35,651 nucleotides of DNA from a virus (taxonomy: Duplodnaviria; Heunggongvirae; Uroviricota; Caudoviricetes), in the IMG/VR virus record IMGVR_UViG_2654587746_000005; one strand, written 5' to 3'. The notes under the pieces are model-generated. The model searched no databases. It was given only the letters and a program-made list of their open reading frames with translations, and was not told the origin of the DNA. A program made the translations under genes and the position numbers. Numbering within the stretch: position 1 is the first letter of the stretch; each line of letters starts with the position of its first letter. Positions 4,752 through 20,106 of this stretch are shown one piece after another.

Positions 4752-4808
4752 AAAAACGGCGGCAGAGCAGTCACGGAGTAAAACTGATACCGCCAAACGT
4801 CACTAACA
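4752..4808 (-). ncRNA. dicF: DicF small regulatory RNA with intrinsic terminator
   Basis: Minus-strand sequence GTGACGTTTGGCGGTATCAGTTTTACTCCGTGACTGCTCTGCCGCCGTTTTT matches recalled DicF (ftsZ-targeting sRNA). A GGCGG...CCGCC stem is followed by a T-run. It sits between the ydfA-like gene and dicB, as in Qin. Confidence 0.75.
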
Positions 4809-8570: not shown

Positions 8571-8800
8571 GTACATCGGCTACCATTCTCGACATGTGCT
8601 GTGGCAGTCGCATGCTCTGGTTCGATAAGAATGACGAATGGTCGATATTTAGCGATATCAGGAAAGAGGAACATTCGCTATGTGATGGACGTCACCCGAT
8701 TATTAATCCCGACATTATCGCTGATTTTCGTGCGCTGCCGTGGTTGTCTGCTTTGCATCAAAAGCAGACATTACCAGATTTAGACATCTGTTTCCGATAG
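8567..8800 (+). CDS. Short ORF with SAM-methyltransferase motif-I-like N-terminus (ILDMCCGS...), possibly a truncated methyltransferase remnant
   Basis: About 77 codons from a GTG. It carries a hh-D-h-x-C-G-S glycine-loop-like signature but lacks the rest of an MTase fold. Weak call. Confidence 0.25.
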
Positions 8801-8832
8801 CCCGTTCTGATGCTACACTTTTTGCTATTTTC

Positions 8833-9519
8833 ATGAACCTCATAAACACATTTATGACTGTTGCTGATTTCAAACGCCCCAAATTGGAGCTCCCAAACGG
8901 GGCAAAAAAACTATTACTGCACTCTTGCTGTGCTCCATGTTCCGGTGAAGTGATGGAGGCGCTTCAGGCCTCGGGAATCGACTACACCATCTTTTTCTAC
9001 AACCCGAACATTCATCCTCAGAAAGAGTATTTAATTCGTAAGGATGAGAATATTCGCTTTGCTAAACAACACGGCGTGCCATTTATTGATGCTGATTACG
9101 ACACAGACAACTGGTTTGAGCGAGCCAAAGGAATGGAATGGGAGCCTGAACGAGGGATCCGTTGTACCATGTGTTTTGACATGCGTTTTGAGCGGACTGC
9201 GCTGTATGCCGCTGAAAATGGTTTCAGTGTGATCAGTAGCTCACTGGGCATTTCACGCTGGAAAAATATGCAGCAGGTTAACGACTGTGGACGGCGAGCC
9301 GTCGCGTATTATCCGGGCATGGTGTACTGGGATTATAACTGGCGAAAGCAGGGCGGCTCTTCCCGCATGATTGAAATCAGCAAGCGCGAACAATTCTATC
9401 AGCAGGAATATTGTGGCTGCGTGTATTCACTGCGCGATACCAATCTACACCGCAAATCTCAGGGACGCCCTCTAATCAAAATTGGTCAACTCCACTACGG
9501 TAAAGAAGGCCAGGAATGA
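8833..9519 (+). CDS. queH: QueH-like (DUF208) Fe-S protein, putative epoxyqueuosine reductase
   Basis: Conserved cysteine motifs are present: [15 protein letters not shown] and YCGC, in a protein of about 220 aa. The start is ambiguous (ATG 8833 or 8863). Confidence 0.7.
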
Positions 9520-9634: not shown

Positions 9635-10074
9635 CTTGTTGAAATTAGAGGAAATCTTGCAGCCATGATATGGCTTAAAATAACGTTTGATTATTTTACC
9701 TGCTGTTTGTCCCTGGTTTAAAGTCGGTTGTCTGATTTGATTACGCGCAACTGACGCTTACGTATTGAAGTAACGAGCACGAAGACACATATTTATCAGT
9801 GCCTGTATACGTCAAGAGCAGGAGATTTATGTGCTGGTTCTCAAATGCACGCTGGCTATTGTGGCTGTAATGGCAATTTATTGTCTTGTTATTGTTCTTA
9901 TGGATCACCTTTCTGATTGATTTCATATTGGAGAGGTAACGGTAGTTAAGTAGAATGGCTGCGGGTGCTTGAGGCTATCTGCCTCGGGCATGAACACCAA
10001 CGGCAGATAGAGAAAAGCCCCAGTTAACATTACGCGTCCTGCAAGACGCTTAACATTAATCTGAGGCCAATTTC

Positions 10075-10287
10075 ATGCTAGACACATGTAGGTTAGCCTC
10101 TTACGTGCCGAAAGGCAAGGAGAAGCAGGCTATGAAGCAGCAAAAGGCGATGTTAATCGCCCTGATCGTCATCTGTTTAACCGTCATAGTGACGGCACTG
10201 GTAACGAGGAAAGACCTCTGCGAGGTACGAATCCGAACCGGCCAGACGGAGGTCGCTGTCTTCACAGCTTACGAACCTGAGGAGTAA
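10075..10287 (+). CDS. mok: Mok-like in-frame leader ORF of the hok locus
   Basis: 70-aa ORF that is an in-frame N-terminal extension of hok, as recalled for chromosomal mokC/hokC. Confidence 0.55.
   Translation: MLDTCRLASYVPKGKEKQAMKQQKAMLIALIVICLTVIVTALVTRKDLCEVRIRTGQTEVAVFTAYEPEE
10132..10287 (+). CDS. hok: Hok/Gef-family type I toxin (51 aa)
   Basis: MKQQKAMLIALIVICLTVIVTALVTRKDLCEVRIRTGQTEVAVFTAYEPEE matches recalled HokD/RelF. It is followed by an intrinsic terminator. Confidence 0.85.
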   Translation: MKQQKAMLIALIVICLTVIVTALVTRKDLCEVRIRTGQTEVAVFTAYEPEE

Positions 10288-11101: not shown

Positions 11102-12151
11102 GTGCGGGTATTACTTCGACCTGTTCTGGTACCGGAACTTGGGCTGGTGGTCGTTAAGCCGGGCCGTGAATCCATGCCGGTATTCCACAATACCCGGGTA
11201 CTGGTGGAGCCGGAACCGAAAAGCATGCGTAATCTGCCGTCCGGGGTCGTTCCTGCCGTTCGCCAGCCGCTGGTGGAAGACAAAACATTGCTGCCGTTTT
11301 TCAGTAACGCACGGGTAATTCGTGCTGCTGGTGGTGCTGGTGCATTGTCTGACTGGCTGTTGCGCCATATTAAATCCTGCCAGTGGCCACACGGCGATTA
11401 TCATCACAGCGAAACCGTTATTCACCGATATGGTACCGGCGCAATGGTGTTGTGCTGGCACTGCGACAACCAGCTGCGTGACCAGACATCCGAATCACTC
11501 GAGCAACTTGCTCATCAAAACCTGTCAGCATGGATGATTGACGTCATCGGTCACGCAATAAGCGGTACGCAGGAGCGTGAATTATCTCTGGCTGAATTAT
11601 CCTGGTGGGCGGTCCGCAATCAGCTGGCGGACGCGCTACCGGAAGCGGTATTACGTCGCTCGCTGGGATTACCAGCGGAAAAAATCTGCTCGGTGTACCG
11701 CGAAAGCGACATCGTACCGGGAGAGCAGACCGCCACCAGCATATTGAAACAGCGCACAAAAAATCTTGCACCGTTGCCTCACGCCCACCAGCAACAAAAC
11801 CCATCACAGGAAAAGACGGTGGTAAGCATCACCGTTGATCCAGAGTCTCCGGAATCTTTCATGAAGCTGCCTAAACGTCACCGGTGGGTTAAGGAGAAAT
11901 ACACACGCTGGGTTAAGACACAGCCGTGTGCTTGCTGCGGTATGCCAGCCGACGATCCGCATCATCTGATTGGTCACGGGCAGGGCGGAATGGGAACCAA
12001 AGCACATGATCTCTTTGTTTTGCCTTTGTGCAGAAAGCATCACGACGAGTTGCATACGGATACCGTGGCATTTGAAGAGAAGTATGGCTCCCAACTGGAG
12101 CTGATTTTTCGATTTATCGATCGCGCGCTGGCAATTGGTGTGCTGGCCTAA
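11102..12151 (+). CDS. YdfU-like DUF968 protein with HNH-like Cys/His motif
   Basis: 349-aa ORF (GTG start) in the pre-Q position. The C-terminal motif [14 protein letters not shown]...CRKHHDELH is typical of the DUF968/YdfU family in lambdoid prophages. Confidence 0.7.
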
Positions 12152-12168
12152 TTTTGTGGAGTAAGTTG

Positions 12169-12546
12169 ATGCGTGATATTCAGATGGTTCTTGAGCGTTG
12201 GGGGGCATGGGCGGCTAATAATCATGAAGATGTGACCTGGTCGTCCATTGCCGCCGGTTTTAAGGGATTAATTCCTTCAAAAGTAAGATCTCGTCCGCAA
12301 TGCTGTGACGATGACGCGATGATCATTTGTGAATGTATGGCTCGCCTGAAAAAAAACAACAGCGATTTACATGATTTATTGGTGGACTATTATGTCGGCG
12401 GCATGACTTTTATGGCGCTTGCACGTAAGCATGGGCGATCTGATTGTTGGGTTGGCAGGATGCTCCAGAAAGCTGAGGGCGTAGTGGAGGGCATGCTGAT
12501 GGTGTTGGATCTCCGATTGGAGATGGATGCTGATTGTTCGAAATAA
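12169..12546 (+). CDS. Late-gene antiterminator Q (QuuD-type, about 125 aa)
   Basis: ATG with [33 protein letters not shown]... matches recalled DLP12 QuuD-type Q. It sits directly upstream of a promoter/terminator-like region and the lysis cassette. Confidence 0.7.
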
Positions 12547-12645
12547 TTAAAGGAAAAGTTGCTGTCTGATTTTCATTAGTCTAACATTTTAAATGTTGGA
12601 ATCGCAACGTAGTTATTATCATATAACAGCTTATTTCCTGATTTA

Positions 12646-12673
12646 GCCAGCCTCCCCAAAGGCTGGTTTTTTT
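12646..12673 (+). terminator. Intrinsic terminator (CCAGCCT-loop-AGGCTGG + T7), candidate tR'-like target of Q downstream of a putative late promoter
   Basis: Perfect 7-bp stem and T-run read from the sequence, about 100 nt after the Q stop. This is analogous to lambda PR'-qut-tR'. Confidence 0.5.
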
Positions 12674-12701
12674 CTAATAAGTATCATTTCGGGTGGGGAT
12701 T

Positions 12702-13226
12702 TTATTGTTTAACCCATAATAGTTCATTGACATTGAATCCCAACTTTTGAGCGGTACGCACATAGTCTGCTTTTACATTATCTGGAATAGTTTGGGTCCT
12801 TGCCAGAATCCATAGGTATTCTCTGTTCGGACCACTGACAAGAGCATACTTATACTCATCATCCAGTTTGATTACATTATAGCCACCATAGAAGGGGCCA
12901 AAAAACGAAACTTTCAACGCTGCAGTTTTAGTATCTCCAGTAAAGTATGCTTTACCTTCGCTCTCGCTCCATTTGTTTTTCGTTGGATCGTATCCACGGT
13001 TAAGTACGCGAATCCCTCCGTCGTTCCGTTTTTCATAAGTAGCGCTGACCTGTTCCAGACCACGTTCGAACCAGTTCTCGAGGCGAGCTATTTCATACCA
13101 TTTTCCGAGGTAGCGGTTGGCGTCAAAATTTGTAATCGGCTGCACACCTTTAGGTGGTGTCGGGGCCTTACATGCTATAAGAGTGAAAGAGAGTGCAATG
13201 CCAGTCAACACAGGCCATAACTTCAT
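12702..13226 (-). CDS. Blc-like outer-membrane lipocalin lipoprotein
   Basis: 174 aa with a signal peptide and lipobox (LIAC). Lipocalin motifs NFDANRYLGKWYEIAR and KVSFFGPFYGGYNVI closely resemble recalled E. coli Blc. The gene is on the opposite strand to the late operon. Confidence 0.8.
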   Translation of the reverse strand: MKLWPVLTGIALSFTLIACKAPTPPKGVQPITNFDANRYLGKWYEIARLENWFERGLEQVSATYEKRNDGGIRVLNRGYDPTKNKWSESEGKAYFTGDTKTAALKVSFFGPFYGGYNVIKLDDEYKYALVSGPNREYLWILARTQTIPDNVKADYVRTAQKLGFNVNELLWVKQ

Positions 13227-13418
13227 AATAAATCCTGTACTTTTGATAGTTGAGAGTAAGTATGAAAGATAGATGAGTACGACCGATCACTTAAAGAACT
13301 TTCCTACTATATTAGGAATAGTCAATAACAGAAAAATTGTCAGTGATGAAGCCAGAAAGGCAATTTAGTCCGTTCACTACAAAGTTTATGTGTTAATGAA
13401 TTAGTCAAGGGGGAGGAA

Positions 13419-14378
13419 ATGATAAAAAAACCTGTGATTGGGATCAGCGGTTGTTTGGGCGGTTCTGCTGTTCGTTTTGATGGTGGTCACAAAAGAGATG
13501 ACTTTTTAATGGACAAATTAGTGGAATGGGTAACATTCAGACCAGTATGTCCGGAAATGGCTATAGGGCTGCCAGTTCCGCGTCCTGCTCTACGACTTGT
13601 GCGCTCGAAGCAAGGAAATATACGGATGTGTTTCAGCCACGACCAGAATGAGGATGTGACAGAGAGAATGACAGAGTTTAGTCGTTCTTATATGGACAAA
13701 TTAAAGGATGTATCGGGGTTTGTGGTTTGTGCTAAATCTCCCAGCTGTGGCATGGAGCGCGTGCGTGTCTATGATGAAAATGGTAATCGAGGTCGTAAAG
13801 ATGGAGTGGGACTATTTACGAGCACTTTGATGGAAAAGTTTTCCTGGCTACCGGTTGAAGAGGATGGGCGATTACATGATCCAGTGCTTCGTGAGAATTT
13901 TATTGAAAGAGTTTTTGCTTTGCATGAGCTCAATCACCTTTACAAGGAGAAATTATCAAGAAGAGAGTTATTAGCTTTTCATAGTCGTTATAAGCTTCAG
14001 TTGTTGGCGCATAGCCAGGCAGGCTATAAAGATATGGGACCATTTGTGGCTGCAATACACGAGTGGGCGGACCTTGAATCATACTTTGAGGTGTATCGTG
14101 ATAATCTGATGGCGATTCTCAGAAAACCAGCATCACGTAAAAATCACACGAATGTGCTGATGCATATACAGGGGTATTTTAGTAATTACTTAAGTACACG
14201 CCAGCGTAAAGAGTTGAGCGAGGTTATACTTAACTATCGCTTTGGCACATTGCCTCTTCTTGCGCCGTTGACTCTGCTGAAGCATTATCTGGGTGAGTAT
14301 CCTAATGATTACTTGCTTACACAGAACTACTTCGATCCCTATCCGGAAGAACTGGCTCTAAGACTGATGGTGAATTAA
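13419..14378 (+). CDS. Two-domain protein: N-terminal DUF523/TudS-like [4Fe-4S] domain fused to C-terminal DUF1722/YbgA-like domain
   Basis: TudS-type motifs are present: GISGCLGG, PVCPEMAIGLP and AKSPSCGM (three Cys plus Glu/Ser). The C-terminal half resembles YbgA. RBS AGGGGGAGG is upstream. Confidence 0.7.
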   Translation: MIKKPVIGISGCLGGSAVRFDGGHKRDDFLMDKLVEWVTFRPVCPEMAIGLPVPRPALRLVRSKQGNIRMCFSHDQNEDVTERMTEFSRSYMDKLKDVSGFVVCAKSPSCGMERVRVYDENGNRGRKDGVGLFTSTLMEKFSWLPVEEDGRLHDPVLRENFIERVFALHELNHLYKEKLSRRELLAFHSRYKLQLLAHSQAGYKDMGPFVAAIHEWADLESYFEVYRDNLMAILRKPASRKNHTNVLMHIQGYFSNYLSTRQRKELSEVILNYRFGTLPLLAPLTLLKHYLGEYPNDYLLTQNYFDPYPEELALRLMVN

Positions 14379-14784
14379 CTGTATGCGATATCATCTGAAA
14401 GTGATGAGTTCCTGTATGCAGGATATTTACAATCGTAAAAACTACGCTATGATGCTCATAGTGTCAGTTTTTATAAAAATCCTGTTCACGCTAAAGAAGA
14501 CATTGAGATGCAATTTAATGTTGGTAAACATACCAGCCCCAAAAGATTTTATTCAATCTGTTTTTATATGAAGATATTTCAAGTGAATATTAAGAGCATA
14601 TAATATTATTATTGCACGCAGCTATTATAATATAACAGATTAGTTTAATGATTTGTTTTTTGTGAGTTAAACACATGGTTTTATAGTTGTGATGCAATGA
14701 GATTTTCCTTATTGTTGAACTGGCGAATATTGATTTTCCACCTATACTTACCTGGTGTAACCCCAATGATATCAGGTGGATAAT

Positions 14785-15498
14785 ATGCCATACATATGTT
14801 CTATCATTTTGGTGTTGAACTCGTTTGGTGTCCGAATTGGTAAAGAAGATATTTTGTTTAAAAAAGGAAATGCTGTCCTCATTGAATACAATTTAAAAGA
14901 TCTTTTTTCGTCAAATACAGATCATCTAATGATCGTAGATGTTGAGGAGAAAACAGTTAATGATTTCTTTAAAAACTACACACTCTCACCTTTTTCTGTA
15001 AGAAGGTTTTATCCGTCATACTTGATAGTAGAATGTGAAGATTTTTCATTGTTAAAGAACTTGGTTGCATGCTTGAATTGTGATAGCAAAACCGTGGATG
15101 TAGTTAGAAATCAAATATCACTTGCATGTCTTGCTGTCTTATCTTCAGAGAAAATAGTGCAAAGTTTTTTGTTCGGAAGTCTTAATAGCTTAGGTTGTAA
15201 AGTTAAGGCTATTATTCACTCGGATATCTCTGCGTCATGGAGACTTTGTGATATATCTTCAAGATTATATATGAGCGAGAGTTTGTTAAAAAGAAAATTA
15301 AAAGACGAAGGATTATCGTTTAGTAAATTAATTCTTGAAGAACGAATGATGATGGCGCAAAGATTATTGATCTACAGTAACCATACTGTCGGCAAGGTGG
15401 CGGGAATATGCGGGTATGACAATGCATCATATTTTGTAAGTGTTTTTAGAGGATATTTTGGTGTGCCTCCGCACCAATATTTATCAAGATTTTCTTAG
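14785..15498 (+). CDS. AraC/XylS-family transcriptional regulator (AppY-like)
   Basis: Very AT-rich gene. The C-terminus has the AraC double HTH (…SESLLKRKLKDEGLSFSKL…GYDNASYFVSVFRGYFGVPPHQY). The N-terminus and overall layout resemble recalled prophage regulator AppY. Confidence 0.8.
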   Translation: MPYICSIILVLNSFGVRIGKEDILFKKGNAVLIEYNLKDLFSSNTDHLMIVDVEEKTVNDFFKNYTLSPFSVRRFYPSYLIVECEDFSLLKNLVACLNCDSKTVDVVRNQISLACLAVLSSEKIVQSFLFGSLNSLGCKVKAIIHSDISASWRLCDISSRLYMSESLLKRKLKDEGLSFSKLILEERMMMAQRLLIYSNHTVGKVAGICGYDNASYFVSVFRGYFGVPPHQYLSRFS

Positions 15499-15568
15499 AA
15501 GATATGATGTGATGGCATTTTATAAAGTTATTTTTTGAAGTGTAAGATTATACGATATTTTTAGCTAC

Positions 15569-15598
15569 GCCAGAATAATTGCTGGCGTTTTTCTTTTT
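15569..15598 (+). terminator. Intrinsic terminator after the AraC-family gene (ACGCCAG-loop-CTGGCGT + T-run)
   Basis: Stem-loop and T-tract read from the sequence. Confidence 0.5.
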
Positions 15599-15688
15599 GA
15601 ATAGATGTTCGGGCCTTACGCTAATGTAACTTCTTTCCTTCTTCGAACCAAACCGTGTACACCATCCGTTATCTGCGGAGGTGAGGCT

Positions 15689-15904
15689 ATGAAATCCATG
15701 GATAAGTTAACAACGGGCATCGCCTACAGCACCTCTGCAGGCAGTGCTGGCTACTGGTTTTTACAGTTGCTCGATAAAGTCACGCCCTCACAGTGGGCGG
15801 CAATAGGTGTATTGGGTAGTCTGGTATTTGGCATGCTGACGTATCTGACAAATCTTTATTTCAAGATTAAAGAAGACAGGCGTAAGGCTGCGAGAGGAGA
15901 GTAA
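15689..15904 (+). CDS. S21-type class II holin (pinholin) with dual-start motif
   Basis: [71 protein letters not shown] closely matches recalled phage 21 S (the S71/S68 dual-start MKSM...). RBS GGAGGTGAGG is upstream. Confidence 0.85.
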
Positions 15905-15908
15905 TCCA

Positions 15909-16216
15909 ATGACTCAAGACTATGAACTGGTTGTGAAAGGAGTCCGTAATTTTGAGAATAAAGTTACGGTAACTGTAGCCTTACAGGACAAAGAACGCTT
16001 TGACGGTGAAATTTTTGGCCTGGATGTCGCCATGGACCGTGTTGAAGGAGCTGCGCTGGAGTTTTATGAGGCAGCAGCCAGAATGAGCGTCCGGCAAGTC
16101 TTCCTGGAAGTAGCAGAAAAATTGTCAGAAAAAGTTGAGTCTTATCTGCAGCATCAGTACTCCTTTAAGATTGAAAATCCTGCCAATAAGCACGAGCGTC
16201 CTCATCATAAATATCT

Positions 16217-16220
<4 letters not shown>
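15909..16220 (+). CDS. YdfR-like (DUF1327-like) protein between holin and endolysin
   Basis: 103-aa ORF whose size and position match Qin ydfR. Family assignment is from recall. Confidence 0.45.
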
Positions 16221-17244
<1,024 letters not shown>

Positions 17245-17607
17245 ATTAATATTAAATCGGATTATTTTTAGCGCTGAATGTGAAATTTAAATAAAAAGGA
17301 CTCTTCCATGAGTCAAAATCCTTGAAATCTTAAGGGTAAGATAAAAGGTCATTAGACAGAATGACACGTTTTATTAATAAATAAAGCTATTGTTTCATTC
17401 GTGTGTTTTTCTTTACAAAAGTAATCCTTGCTATGGTTGGTTAATCATGCGTTAATGGTGTTCTGGTTTGTTACAAAATTATCTGAAGCAGTCATTGTTA
17501 TAATTTTATTATTTGTACCTCTTGAGATTTCCTTGTTGGTTTTTCTCTCTGATATTTTTTTTCGGACCATTCTGCCCAAGGGCTAACTTCTTCAAAAGGT
17601 AATAATG

Positions 17608-17820
17608 ATGTCTAACAAAATGACTGGTTTAGTGAAATGGTTTAACCCTGAAAAAGGTTTTGGTTTCATCACGCCGAAAGATGGTAGCAAAGATGTGTTT
17701 GTGCATTTCTCAGCTATTCAGAGCAACGATTTCAAAACGTTAACTGAGAATCAGGAAGTCGAATTTGGTATTGAGAACGGACCTAAAGGCCCTGCAGCTG
17801 TTCATGTAGTGGCACTTTGA
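17608..17820 (+). CDS. CspA-family cold-shock protein
   Basis: [23 protein letters not shown]...VHF... shows canonical RNP1/RNP2 cold-shock domain motifs. A long AT-rich 5' leader lies upstream. Confidence 0.9.
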
Positions 17821-18023
17821 GGTAGAAAATATTACAAACCATATTCACTTTAGATGCCCGTGTTGCCATGGTTCTCAGTATAGAACATCATCTTTTGATG
17901 TTTCTGACAGAAATCCTTTCGGGGCAAAATGTATCTTTTGTAAATCAATGATGATTACATTTGATAATATTTCACAATACTTAAATGTTAGCCATCTGTC
18001 GTTAGATTTAAGAAAGTGAAAAT

Positions 18024-18454: not shown

Positions 18455-18880
18455 TCAATCAGGTGTTGACTGACTCTGAACGTAGGCTCTGAGCGTTTCA
18501 ATCGTTGCCCCTCCGGTGCTACAGACAAAGTACGATCTCGACCACAAAAGCCCCGTTTTACTCTGCATACGTAAATGCGCGTTCTGCTGGCGTAGCAAAC
18601 GTGATGATACCGATTTTAAATTATTGACCATCACACTGACCGCCAGTTTTGGCGGGTAGGCCACCAGCAGGTGTACATGGTCTGGCTCCCCGTCCATCTC
18701 AATAATTTCGCATTCAAGCTTTGCCGCAGCGGAGCCAAAAGCCTCACGCAACTGAGCGATCATCTGACTGTCGAATAGTTTGCGTCGATACTTTGTCGTA
18801 AAAATAAGGTGCACAACCAGCTTACTGACACTGTGTCGTTTGCGGAGAAATCCCGCCAGTAAATCATCATGATTACTCAA
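18455..18880 (-). CDS. tnpA: IS200/IS605 Y1 (HUH) transposase TnpA
   Basis: 141 aa with the HUH motif (HVHLLV) and a C-terminal catalytic Tyr region (RSYFVCSTGG). Size is typical. Confidence 0.85.
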   Translation of the reverse strand: MSNHDDLLAGFLRKRHSVSKLVVHLIFTTKYRRKLFDSQMIAQLREAFGSAAAKLECEIIEMDGEPDHVHLLVAYPPKLAVSVMVNNLKSVSSRLLRQQNAHLRMQSKTGLLWSRSYFVCSTGGATIETLRAYVQSQSTPD

Positions 18881-18936
18881 TTGATATATTCACCTAAAGT
18901 GTTAAAATAAAAGCATTATATCAATGAGCGCTGACT

Positions 18937-20106
18937 ATGTTAAGAGCAACAAAAGTACGCATCTACCCGACACCAGAACAGGCTGAATTTATCAACGCCC
19001 AGTTCGGTGCAGTGCGTTTTGCGTACAACAAAGCTCTGCATATCAAGAAACATTCTTACCAGCGGCACCGCGTAAATTTAAACCCGCGTAAAGACCTCAA
19101 ACCACTGCTTGCAGTGGCGAAGAAATCCCGCCGGTATGGATGGCTTAAAGAATATGATTCTATTGCGTTGCAGCAGGCGGTAATTAACCTCGACGTGGCT
19201 TTTTCTAACTTTTTCAATCCGAAACTGAAAGCAGGTAAACCTACCTTTAAAAGTAAACACGGCAGACAATCGAGCTATCATTGTGTTGGCATAAAAGTCC
19301 TTGATGGTGCGATAAAAATACCGAAAATCTTGCCGATTGAAGCGCGTTTACATCGTGAAATTACGGGAATGCTGAAAAGTATCACGTTGAGCCGCAGCGC
19401 AACCGGGAAATACTACGCGTCGTTACTCTGTGACGACGGGATGGAAGCGCCGGCAAAGCCCGCACTGATATCAAATGTGACAGGGCTGGATATGGGGCTG
19501 GCGCATTTTGTCATCAAATCGGACGGCAATAAAATTGCCAGTCCCCGCCACCTAATCAATGCAAGTCGCAACCTGCGCCGGAAGCAGAAAGCACTGTCCC
19601 GTAAGAAAAAAGGGAGCGCAAACAGGCGCAAAGCCAGAATACAACTTGCAGCCGTTCACGAACGGGTAGCCAGTGCCCGTGCCGATTTCCAGCACAAGTT
19701 ATCTCGCGCAATTGTTGACGAAAACCAAGCGGTAATTGTCGAGACATTGAAAACGGCAAATATGATGAAAAATCACCATCTGGCTCGTGCGATAGGCGAT
19801 GCTGGATGGTCTGGATTCATCACAAAACTGGAATACAAAGCAGCAGAGAAAGGTGTGCATCTGGTGAAACTGGATCAATGGTTCGCCAGTTCGAAAACCT
19901 GCCACTGCTGCGGTCACAAAATGTCGGAGATGCCATTACATAAGCGCATCTGGCAGTGTCCAGAGTGTGGAGTTGAACATGACCGCGATATCAACGCGGC
20001 GCTCAACATCAAACGCAAGGGCATACTGGAATTACAAGCGGCGGGACTCGTCGTTTCTGCCCATGGAGGCCAGCGTAAATCCGTCACACAGACGGTTGCG
20101 GCTTAA
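18937..20106 (+). CDS. tnpB: TnpB (OrfB) RuvC-like RNA-guided nuclease of IS605 family
   Basis: 389 aa with an N-terminal OrfB region, RuvC motifs and a C-terminal zinc finger (CHCCGHK...CPECGVEHDRDINAALNI). Confidence 0.85.
   Translation: MLRATKVRIYPTPEQAEFINAQFGAVRFAYNKALHIKKHSYQRHRVNLNPRKDLKPLLAVAKKSRRYGWLKEYDSIALQQAVINLDVAFSNFFNPKLKAGKPTFKSKHGRQSSYHCVGIKVLDGAIKIPKILPIEARLHREITGMLKSITLSRSATGKYYASLLCDDGMEAPAKPALISNVTGLDMGLAHFVIKSDGNKIASPRHLINASRNLRRKQKALSRKKKGSANRRKARIQLAAVHERVASARADFQHKLSRAIVDENQAVIVETLKTANMMKNHHLARAIGDAGWSGFITKLEYKAAEKGVHLVKLDQWFASSKTCHCCGHKMSEMPLHKRIWQCPECGVEHDRDINAALNIKRKGILELQAAGLVVSAHGGQRKSVTQTVAA

Follow-up and report, generated by a model that had tools for sequence, protein, structure and literature searches.

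Introduction

Fusion of a TudS desulfidase domain to a DUF1722 domain has been characterised and named RudS (Jamontas et al., Nucleic Acids Res 2024, PMC11417400). RudS was described as a [4Fe-4S] desulfidase that converts 4-thiouridine (s4U) in tRNA to uridine, with DUF1722 serving as the domain that binds the tRNA anticodon arm (PMC11417400). Six RudS orthologs overexpressed in E. coli BL21(DE3) lowered tRNA s4U by 4.7- to 26-fold, and one of them, RudS_vir, came from phage 1H12; mutants of the cysteine ligands of RudS orthologs were mostly inactive, and neither TudS alone nor YbgA alone affected tRNA s4U (PMC11417400). The biochemically characterised ortholog is RudS_KT (PP_0741 of Pseudomonas putida KT2440), which in purified form binds tRNA and removes about 80% of its s4U within 1 min in vitro; cluster binding has been shown, imperfectly, only for this protein, and its overexpression shortened the growth delay after UVA from about 105 to about 60 min (PMC11417400). 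The same paper states that E. coli lacks RudS, and a 2026 review likewise; no later study of RudS in phages or prophages turned up in a literature search.

Here we analyse an open reading frame in a stretch of phage DNA of 35,651 nucleotides, which in its full length is called the window below. An initial annotation, made from the letters alone, had read this ORF as a TudS-like domain fused to a YbgA-like domain and carried as cargo between the Q and lysis genes of a prophage.

Domain organization and functional residues

The ORF runs uninterrupted from an ATG for 319 aa, with a Shine-Dalgarno / ribosome-binding site (GGGGGAGG) ahead of it. Its parts are listed below, with the evidence in brackets.

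13419-14378, plus strand: rudS, TudS-DUF1722 fusion, predicted tRNA 4-thiouridine desulfidase (ORF, Pfam, identity to RudS_vir)
13437-13865, plus strand: TudS (DUF523) catalytic domain, aa 7-149 (Pfam, alignment to TudS 6Z92, fold match)
13452-13454, 13548-13550 and 13746-13748, plus strand: predicted cluster ligands Cys12, Cys44 and Cys110, respectively (alignment to TudS 6Z92)
13992-14345, plus strand: DUF1722 domain, aa 192-309, all-helical (Pfam, AlphaFold2 model)

The proposed fusion of a TudS-like domain to DUF1722 was recovered as two full-length Pfam matches in one ORF. The N-terminal one is to PF04463 (2-thiouracil desulfurase, 2-thiour_desulf, formerly DUF523), covering profile positions 1-141 of 141 with E 5.8e-40 and 137 bits against a cutoff of 34.7 bits, and the C-terminal one is to PF08349 (DUF1722), covering positions 1-117 of 117 with E 9.4e-40 and 136 bits against a cutoff of 22.5 bits; both are far beyond chance. 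The NCBIfam YbgA model PRK10167 aligns to aa 161-315 over 155 of its 169 positions with 189 bits, below the equivalog cutoff of 237, and the C-terminal half is therefore YbgA-like and not YbgA itself. The NCBIfam TudS-related model gives only 17.7 bits, and the protein, with its two domains and 319 aa, is unlike single-domain TudS of about 150-170 aa. In the annotation of strain TA8571, PGAP names the product “YbgA family protein”, a label that undersells RudS and masks a characterised eraser of tRNA modification.

An AlphaFold2 model of the protein has a moderate pLDDT of 76.7, low near aa 14-25; its N-terminal domain is of alpha/beta type and its C-terminal domain consists of helices only. 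Searched against the PDB with Foldseek, this model gave significant matches to five TudS chains only (probability 1.00, TMt 0.67), and no PDB fold match was found for its DUF1722 domain; a PDB search by sequence had TudS (6Z92) as its sole match. TudS (DUF523Vcz; PDB 6Z92-6ZW9) is a stand-alone [4Fe-4S] thiouracil/s4UMP desulfidase that resembles the N-terminal domain of the window protein in fold, cluster ligands and Glu/Ser residues, yet it lacks DUF1722, is only about 26% identical and has no lowering effect on tRNA s4U in vivo. Aligned to 6Z92, the residues C12, C44, E46, S107, S109 and C110 match the cluster ligands and catalytic residues of TudS position by position (C12/C44/C110 being TudS C10/C43/C104), which bears out the constellation of three cysteines plus Glu/Ser that the initial annotation had assigned to TudS. 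The cysteine numbering given for RudS_vir and RudS_ST in Table 1 of PMC11417400 is the same as in the window. All members of the catalytic set, Glu46, Arg55, Ser107 and Ser109, are present. Across an alignment of 141 sequences (the window protein and 140 representatives of 50%-identity clusters), catalytic and cysteine-ligand positions are near-invariant, being kept in 134-140 of the 141 (137-139 for the cysteines).

For comparison with RudS_KT, a local sequence of that protein was obtained by translating the mutagenesis primers in the supplement of PMC11417400. To reach window numbering, 5 is subtracted from a RudS_KT residue number as far as residue 64, and 4 from residue 110 on; in this register, C17/C49/C114, E51, R60, S111 and S113 of RudS_KT are C12/C44/C110, E46, R55, S107 and S109 of the window. 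Methionine mutants of E51, R60, S111 and S113 were inactive (PMC11417400). Among the 19 positions of the RudS_KT binding groups (G1-G6) at which substitutions significantly lowered activity, a count that leaves out the catalytic Arg60, 11 are identical in the window according to this primer-derived mapping, including R19, G22, R59, K106, E148, R151, S239 and R240. Two further positions carry conservative changes: R116 stands for K120, and F20 stands for Y25, where the Y25F mutant was about as active as wild type (PMC11417400). The residues D21, H198, S199, P237 and N242 differ from N26, N202, N203, C241 and T246 of RudS_KT. N242 lies in a variable column of the 141-sequence alignment; the other four are the family-majority residue, and at these positions RudS_KT is therefore the unusual one. 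Searching for RudS_KT itself with a 36-residue fingerprint among 150 representatives recovered only a relative, P0140, with 19 of 36 positions matching, and P0140 used as a query against genome contigs gave 0 matches.

Ser239 and Arg240 align with Ser243 and Arg244 of RudS_KT, which contact the anticodon region (PMC11417400). Their retention bears on another reading of the enzyme, namely that it salvages free 4-thiouracil, 4-thiouridine or s4UMP into UMP for phage nucleic acids, with tRNA de-modification as a side activity. This could draw on the behaviour of RudS_vir, which desulfurated tRNA less strongly than RudS_ST although the two proteins reached similar levels, and which was the best of the RudS enzymes at supporting growth on 4-thiouracil, with the shortest lag (PMC11417400); the substrate balance of RudS_vir may therefore lean further to free thiouracil. 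TudS enzymes, moreover, act on s4UMP (PMC10611767). Yet no RudS, RudS_vir included, supported growth on thiouracil to the level reached with TudS, and every RudS lowered tRNA s4U where stand-alone TudS did not (PMC11417400). The kept anticodon-region contacts, together with purifying selection on DUF1722 that equals or exceeds that on the catalytic domain (see below), make salvage as the main role improbable, if not negligible, and tRNA is the more likely main substrate.

Relatives of the phage gene

A close relative with tested activity is RudS_vir (gp66, H3V29_gp66, YP_009909557.1; Escherichia phage 1H12, NC_049947), which also has 319 aa and is 92% identical to the window protein (293/319) without gaps; none of the 26 differences falls at a catalytic or mapped functional residue. 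The surrounding region is 91% identical to phage 1H12 at the DNA level, and an isolated phage, IdasGreatGrand, encodes a RudS that is 97% identical. The enzyme function expected of the window rudS is thereby already known, having been published in 2024 for a 92%-identical protein of the same phage module. The suggestion that a prophage enzyme of this kind could desulfurate s4U in tRNA thus agrees with the published function of the RudS family, which the window protein, judged by its identity to RudS_vir, would be expected to share. The accompanying suggestion, that such an enzyme might alter the near-UV growth delay, is in line with the shortened delay reported on overexpression of RudS_KT. 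RudS_KT has the same two-domain architecture, and representatives of its clade (P0140) are about 42% identical to the window. YbgA of E. coli (b0707), by contrast, is a stand-alone DUF1722 beside photolyase, with no catalytic domain and no effect on s4U.

Outside phages, the nearest relatives, with 69-76% identity, lie on the chromosomes of Citrobacter, Serratia, Klebsiella, Enterobacter and others. Citrobacter braakii P0007, as an example of the enterobacterial chromosomal type, and Salmonella STM1389/ORF319 (RudS_ST) both have 319 aa and the same cysteine positions as the window. A Salmonella copy with 73% identity is located next to ttcA within a prophage remnant. The Citrobacter gene is the last of an operon with SDR, amine oxidase, DUF1365, CFA-synthase-like, DUF2878 and DUF3833 genes, and there are no phage genes nearby. 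PP_0741 sits in a LitR/photolyase light-induced operon, whereas the window gene is in a phage late region, with Q, a Blc lipocalin, an AraC-like regulator and a holin as its neighbours; the MerR/LitR or photolyase context, on which the idea of a light response is built, is absent beside it, and no MerR or photolyase gene was found among the window ORFs profiled. Light-responsive RudS operons may also have carotenoid or CFA-like genes. An origin of the phage Blc gene from the chromosomal rudS operon was considered and rejected: a 175-aa unannotated neighbour of Citrobacter rudS is not similar to Blc (BLASTP E 1.8), and this neighbour has only a weak chalcone-isomerase-like match.

Locus organization and likely transcription

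The features around rudS, from Q to the lysis genes, are as follows.

12169-12546, plus strand: late antiterminator Q (PF06530, E 8e-51; PGAP annotation of a 100%-identical stretch of TA8571)
12547-12676, plus strand: leader after Q, with a putative pR'-type late promoter region and a tR'-like intrinsic terminator (terminator scan, RNA fold, conservation)
12702-13226, minus strand: blc, Blc-type outer-membrane lipocalin (PF08212, E 7.5e-43; NCBIfam Blc 312.6 bits, cutoff 267)
13227-13418, no strand: divergent blc-rudS intergenic region, 192 bp (promoter scan)
14436-14476, plus strand: hairpin with flanking A and U runs, probable rudS terminator (RNA fold, terminator scan)
14785-15498, plus strand: AraC/XylS-family regulator (YdeO/GadX-like), variable third cargo gene (PF12833/PF00165)
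15567-15596, plus strand: intrinsic terminator between the AraC-like gene and the holin (terminator scan; -11.3 kcal/mol, z -2.7)
15689-17244, plus strand: lysis cassette of P21-type holin EssD (15689-15904), DUF1327, lysozyme and Rz/DUF2514 (profiles, TA8571 annotation)

Q and the holin gene thus flank rudS, as had been foreseen from its position as Q-S cargo. Phage 1H12 shares the module of Q, opposite-strand lipocalin and rudS upstream of the lysis genes, although its backbone is lambda-like (P/ren/ninB/rusA) and that of the window is Qin-type (dicB/DicF, hokD/sok, DUF968, cspI-like). About 100 nt after Q, the tR'-like terminator at 12645-12676 consists of a stem (12645-12668) followed by U7, folds with -14.9 kcal/mol (z -3.4) and is kept in phages 1H12 and IdasGreatGrand. 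The best promoter-scan match near the end of Q is at 12518-12547 (9/12), and pR' presumably lies in the leader, going by lambdoid architecture. The blc gene points away from rudS and is antisense to the late transcripts. The hairpin after rudS begins about 60 nt past the stop codon and is strong (-16 kcal/mol, z -6.6, with 0 of 200 shuffles as good); DNA homology to 1H12-type phages stops at window position 14496, and the hairpin is probably both the terminator of rudS and the end of the conserved blc-rudS module. An AT-rich spacer separates it from the AraC-like gene, whose product scores 112 bits with the YdeO model, below the cutoff; 922 of 5426 genomes have this gene. No known RNA element was found in the cassette (Rfam, 12100-16000).

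The initial annotation had also placed a second Fe-S enzyme tied to tRNA modification, QueH, in this prophage. It is indeed there, as the ORF at 8740-9519 (PF02677, E 4e-65); in other phages and prophages with rudS, the flanks that were examined had no QueH, and the pairing of the two genes is therefore not systematic.

Taken as a whole, rudS has the position of a moron-like cargo gene of the late region, downstream of Q and tR' and upstream of the holin, with a putative terminator of its own. In lambdoid phages, transcription of the lysis and morphogenesis genes starts at pR', which follows directly on Q, and is carried out by a Q-modified RNA polymerase that is resistant to terminators. Since rudS lies between Q with its terminator and the holin, antiterminated late transcription must, on this architecture, cross rudS, passing three plus-strand terminators on its way from Q to the holin. 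Late transcripts would thus run through the whole module of Q leader and terminator, blc, rudS and terminator, and we infer from this that RudS is most likely made in lytic growth after induction.

Perhaps rudS is instead, or in addition, expressed in the lysogen from a regulated promoter of its own between blc and rudS, which might respond to stress or be driven by the AraC-like activator, so that the prophage converts its host to a lower s4U content and faster recovery from near-UV. Such lysogenic conversion would be compatible with late expression as well. The strong terminator of rudS and the 192-bp region upstream of it, which is mostly conserved among three phages, fit a self-contained moron, and degraded Qin-type remnants that cannot be induced, such as that of TA8571, still have the gene intact, which suggests a benefit to the host; the shorter UVA growth delay on RudS_KT overexpression points the same way. 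However, the scan of the intergenic region gave no sigma-70 match of 9/12 or better upstream of rudS, and expression data for rudS were not found in the papers searched. The module, moreover, can do without the AraC-like gene: IS1 has taken its place in AP022245, and 1H12 has another allele of it. Expression in the lysogen is therefore a possibility that we hold with some doubt, and lytic expression is preferred.

Selection and distribution

Between the window and 1H12, the dN/dS of rudS is 0.135 (dS 0.30), with 0.19 for the TudS domain and 0.10 for DUF1722, and phage alleles overall lie at about 0.1-0.2; these figures refer to phage alleles, as synonymous sites are saturated in comparisons with the Citrobacter and Salmonella homologs. 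The low values in both TudS and DUF1722 indicate that both halves are maintained.

Within E. coli, rudS was found on prophages in 1136 of 5426 complete genomes (about 20%), with alleles that form three identity bands. The statement that E. coli lacks RudS is true of laboratory strains and at odds with this count. Viable phages (1H12, the Lambda_ev series and IdasGreatGrand) have an intact ORF, and the backbones that carry it are of Qin type (the window, strain TA8571) or of lambda type with O/P/ren/ninB. Across these backbones rudS follows the same kind of Q, and blc adjoins it at every locus examined.

Another reading is that rudS is an inert passenger, linked by chance to this Q allele and without current function. 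The BL21-lineage strain B95.deltaA has Q, blc and rudS, but IS3 truncates its rudS after the first 147 nt, and a few other genomes have partial matches. Nonetheless, at least 80% of the gene is covered in 1064 of the 1136 carriers, dN/dS stays at 0.1-0.2 over dS of up to 0.3, all catalytic residues are intact and a close homolog is active. A gene without function is for these reasons very unlikely.

Proposed role

Our main reading takes the ORF to be rudS, allelic to the RudS_vir gene and coding for an eraser of tRNA s4U that is carried as cargo of a Qin-type lambdoid E. coli prophage and is most likely expressed in lytic growth; we give this a probability of roughly 85%. The present analysis covers the identity of the gene, its residues, fold, selection, architecture and distribution; enzyme activity, its loss in most mutants of the cysteine ligands and the shortened UVA growth delay come from published work on close homologs, while the time of expression and the gain for the phage are inferred.

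The chemistry would follow the published TudS/RudS scheme (PMC11417400). Host tRNA would be bound by DUF1722 at the anticodon arm and by the TudS domain at the D arm, variable loop and acceptor stem, and the hold on the anticodon arm would make tRNA the preferred substrate over free thiouracil. The [4Fe-4S] cluster is predicted to be held on Cys12, Cys44 and Cys110 with its fourth iron free; s4U8 would be flipped out so that its sulfur coordinates this unique iron, and Glu46, oriented by Arg55, Ser107 and Ser109, would activate a water molecule to give uridine and a transient [4Fe-5S] cluster. The outcome would be conversion of s4U at tRNA position 8 (or 9) to uridine, with release of sulfide.

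If RudS is made during induced lytic growth, it may strip UVA-sensitive s4U from host tRNA. A tRNA without s4U8 would not form the UVA-induced s4U8-C13 crosslink, and late translation after UV-triggered induction might in this way be spared throttling by uncharged tRNA and ppGpp. This payoff for the phage is speculation, consistent with the discussion in PMC11417400.

What is new here is modest: the prevalence of rudS in natural E. coli and the misleading “YbgA family” label under which it is annotated. With rudS in about a fifth of the complete genomes, and with a natural IS3 knockout in a strain of the BL21 lineage, to which the standard assay host belongs, the choice of strain matters for experiments on s4U and UVA. 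It is conceivable, at a clearly lower probability than the main reading, that lambdoid coliphages carry RudS as a late-operon remodeller of host tRNA during induced lytic growth, whose erasure of s4U8 would prevent UVA-crosslinked tRNA and a stringent throttling of late protein synthesis; if this is true, around one in five natural E. coli, unlike K-12 and B, may have an s4U content and a near-UV physiology that depend on a prophage. The obligatory position of rudS on the late transcript would offer a testable route to the first physiological role of a phage-encoded tRNA “eraser”.

Neighbourhood of rudS in the Qin-type prophage

The genes and elements surrounding rudS, the gene of the TudS-DUF1722 fusion, in the window are as follows:

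4757-4808, minus strand: DicF sRNA (Rfam match)
8740-9519, plus strand: gene of a QueH-type epoxyqueuosine reductase (PF02677, E 4e-65)
9963-10137, plus strand: sok antitoxin RNA, adjoining a hokD-type toxin gene (Rfam match)
12702-13226, minus strand: gene of a Blc-type outer-membrane lipocalin (312.6 bits to the NCBIfam Blc model, over cutoff)
14785-15498, plus strand: AraC/XylS-family regulator gene, immediately 3' of rudS
17450-17866, plus strand: cspA-type thermoregulator leader (Rfam match)
18455-20106: IS200/IS605-family element, with the lysis cassette on one side and terminase genes on the other
18455-18880, minus strand: its Y1 transposase TnpA
18937-20106, plus strand: its TnpB, with OrfB_IS605 and Cas12f1-like TNB domains

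The Rfam matches to DicF, the sok/hokD-type pair and the cspA-type leader, which belongs to a cspI-like cold-shock gene lying after the lysis genes, identify the prophage as Qin-type. The Blc-type lipocalin gene was linked to rudS at all examined loci; it runs antisense to the late transcript. On the other side of rudS, the top NCBIfam matches of the AraC/XylS-family regulator were YdeO, HilD and GadX, each under cutoff; it is of the same general class as PsrA, PsrB, PatE and AppY, prophage regulators by which acid resistance and type III secretion are rewired. This regulator was found in 922 of the 5426 complete E. coli genomes surveyed, its alleles among these matches forming two divergent groups (at least 99% and 80-90%).

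QueH, encoded in the early/nin region, is a second Fe-S enzyme of this prophage acting on tRNA, beside RudS. The pairing is not systematic, since the examined flanks of rudS had no annotated QueH gene, either in the isolated phages (1H12, IdasGreatGrand) or in the prophages of TA8571, AP022245 and CP116074.

rudS at other enterobacterial loci

Three further settings of rudS are as follows:

Salmonella enterica contigs L007-L009, 5001-5960: RudS copy, 73% identical, adjoining ttcA
Citrobacter locus L004, 1-5960: chromosomal enterobacterial operon with rudS as the final gene
E. coli B95.deltaA (BL21 lineage) locus L015, 3501-4840: Q-blc-rudS with an interrupted rudS, in the Qin-type prophage remnant of this B strain

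The Salmonella copy, near which integrase fragments lie together with a phage gene of the DUF1367 family, represents a further prophage-remnant site, distinct from STM1389/ORF319. In Citrobacter, the operon also encodes an SDR, an amine oxidase, DUF1365, a CFA-synthase-like protein, DUF2878, an uncharacterised 175-aa protein and DUF3833, and presumably resembles the photo-oxidative-stress clusters known from other bacteria.

In B95.deltaA, an IS3 element cuts rudS after 147 nt. The BL21 lineage, host in the published RudS assays (PMC11417400), is therefore a natural rudS knockout.
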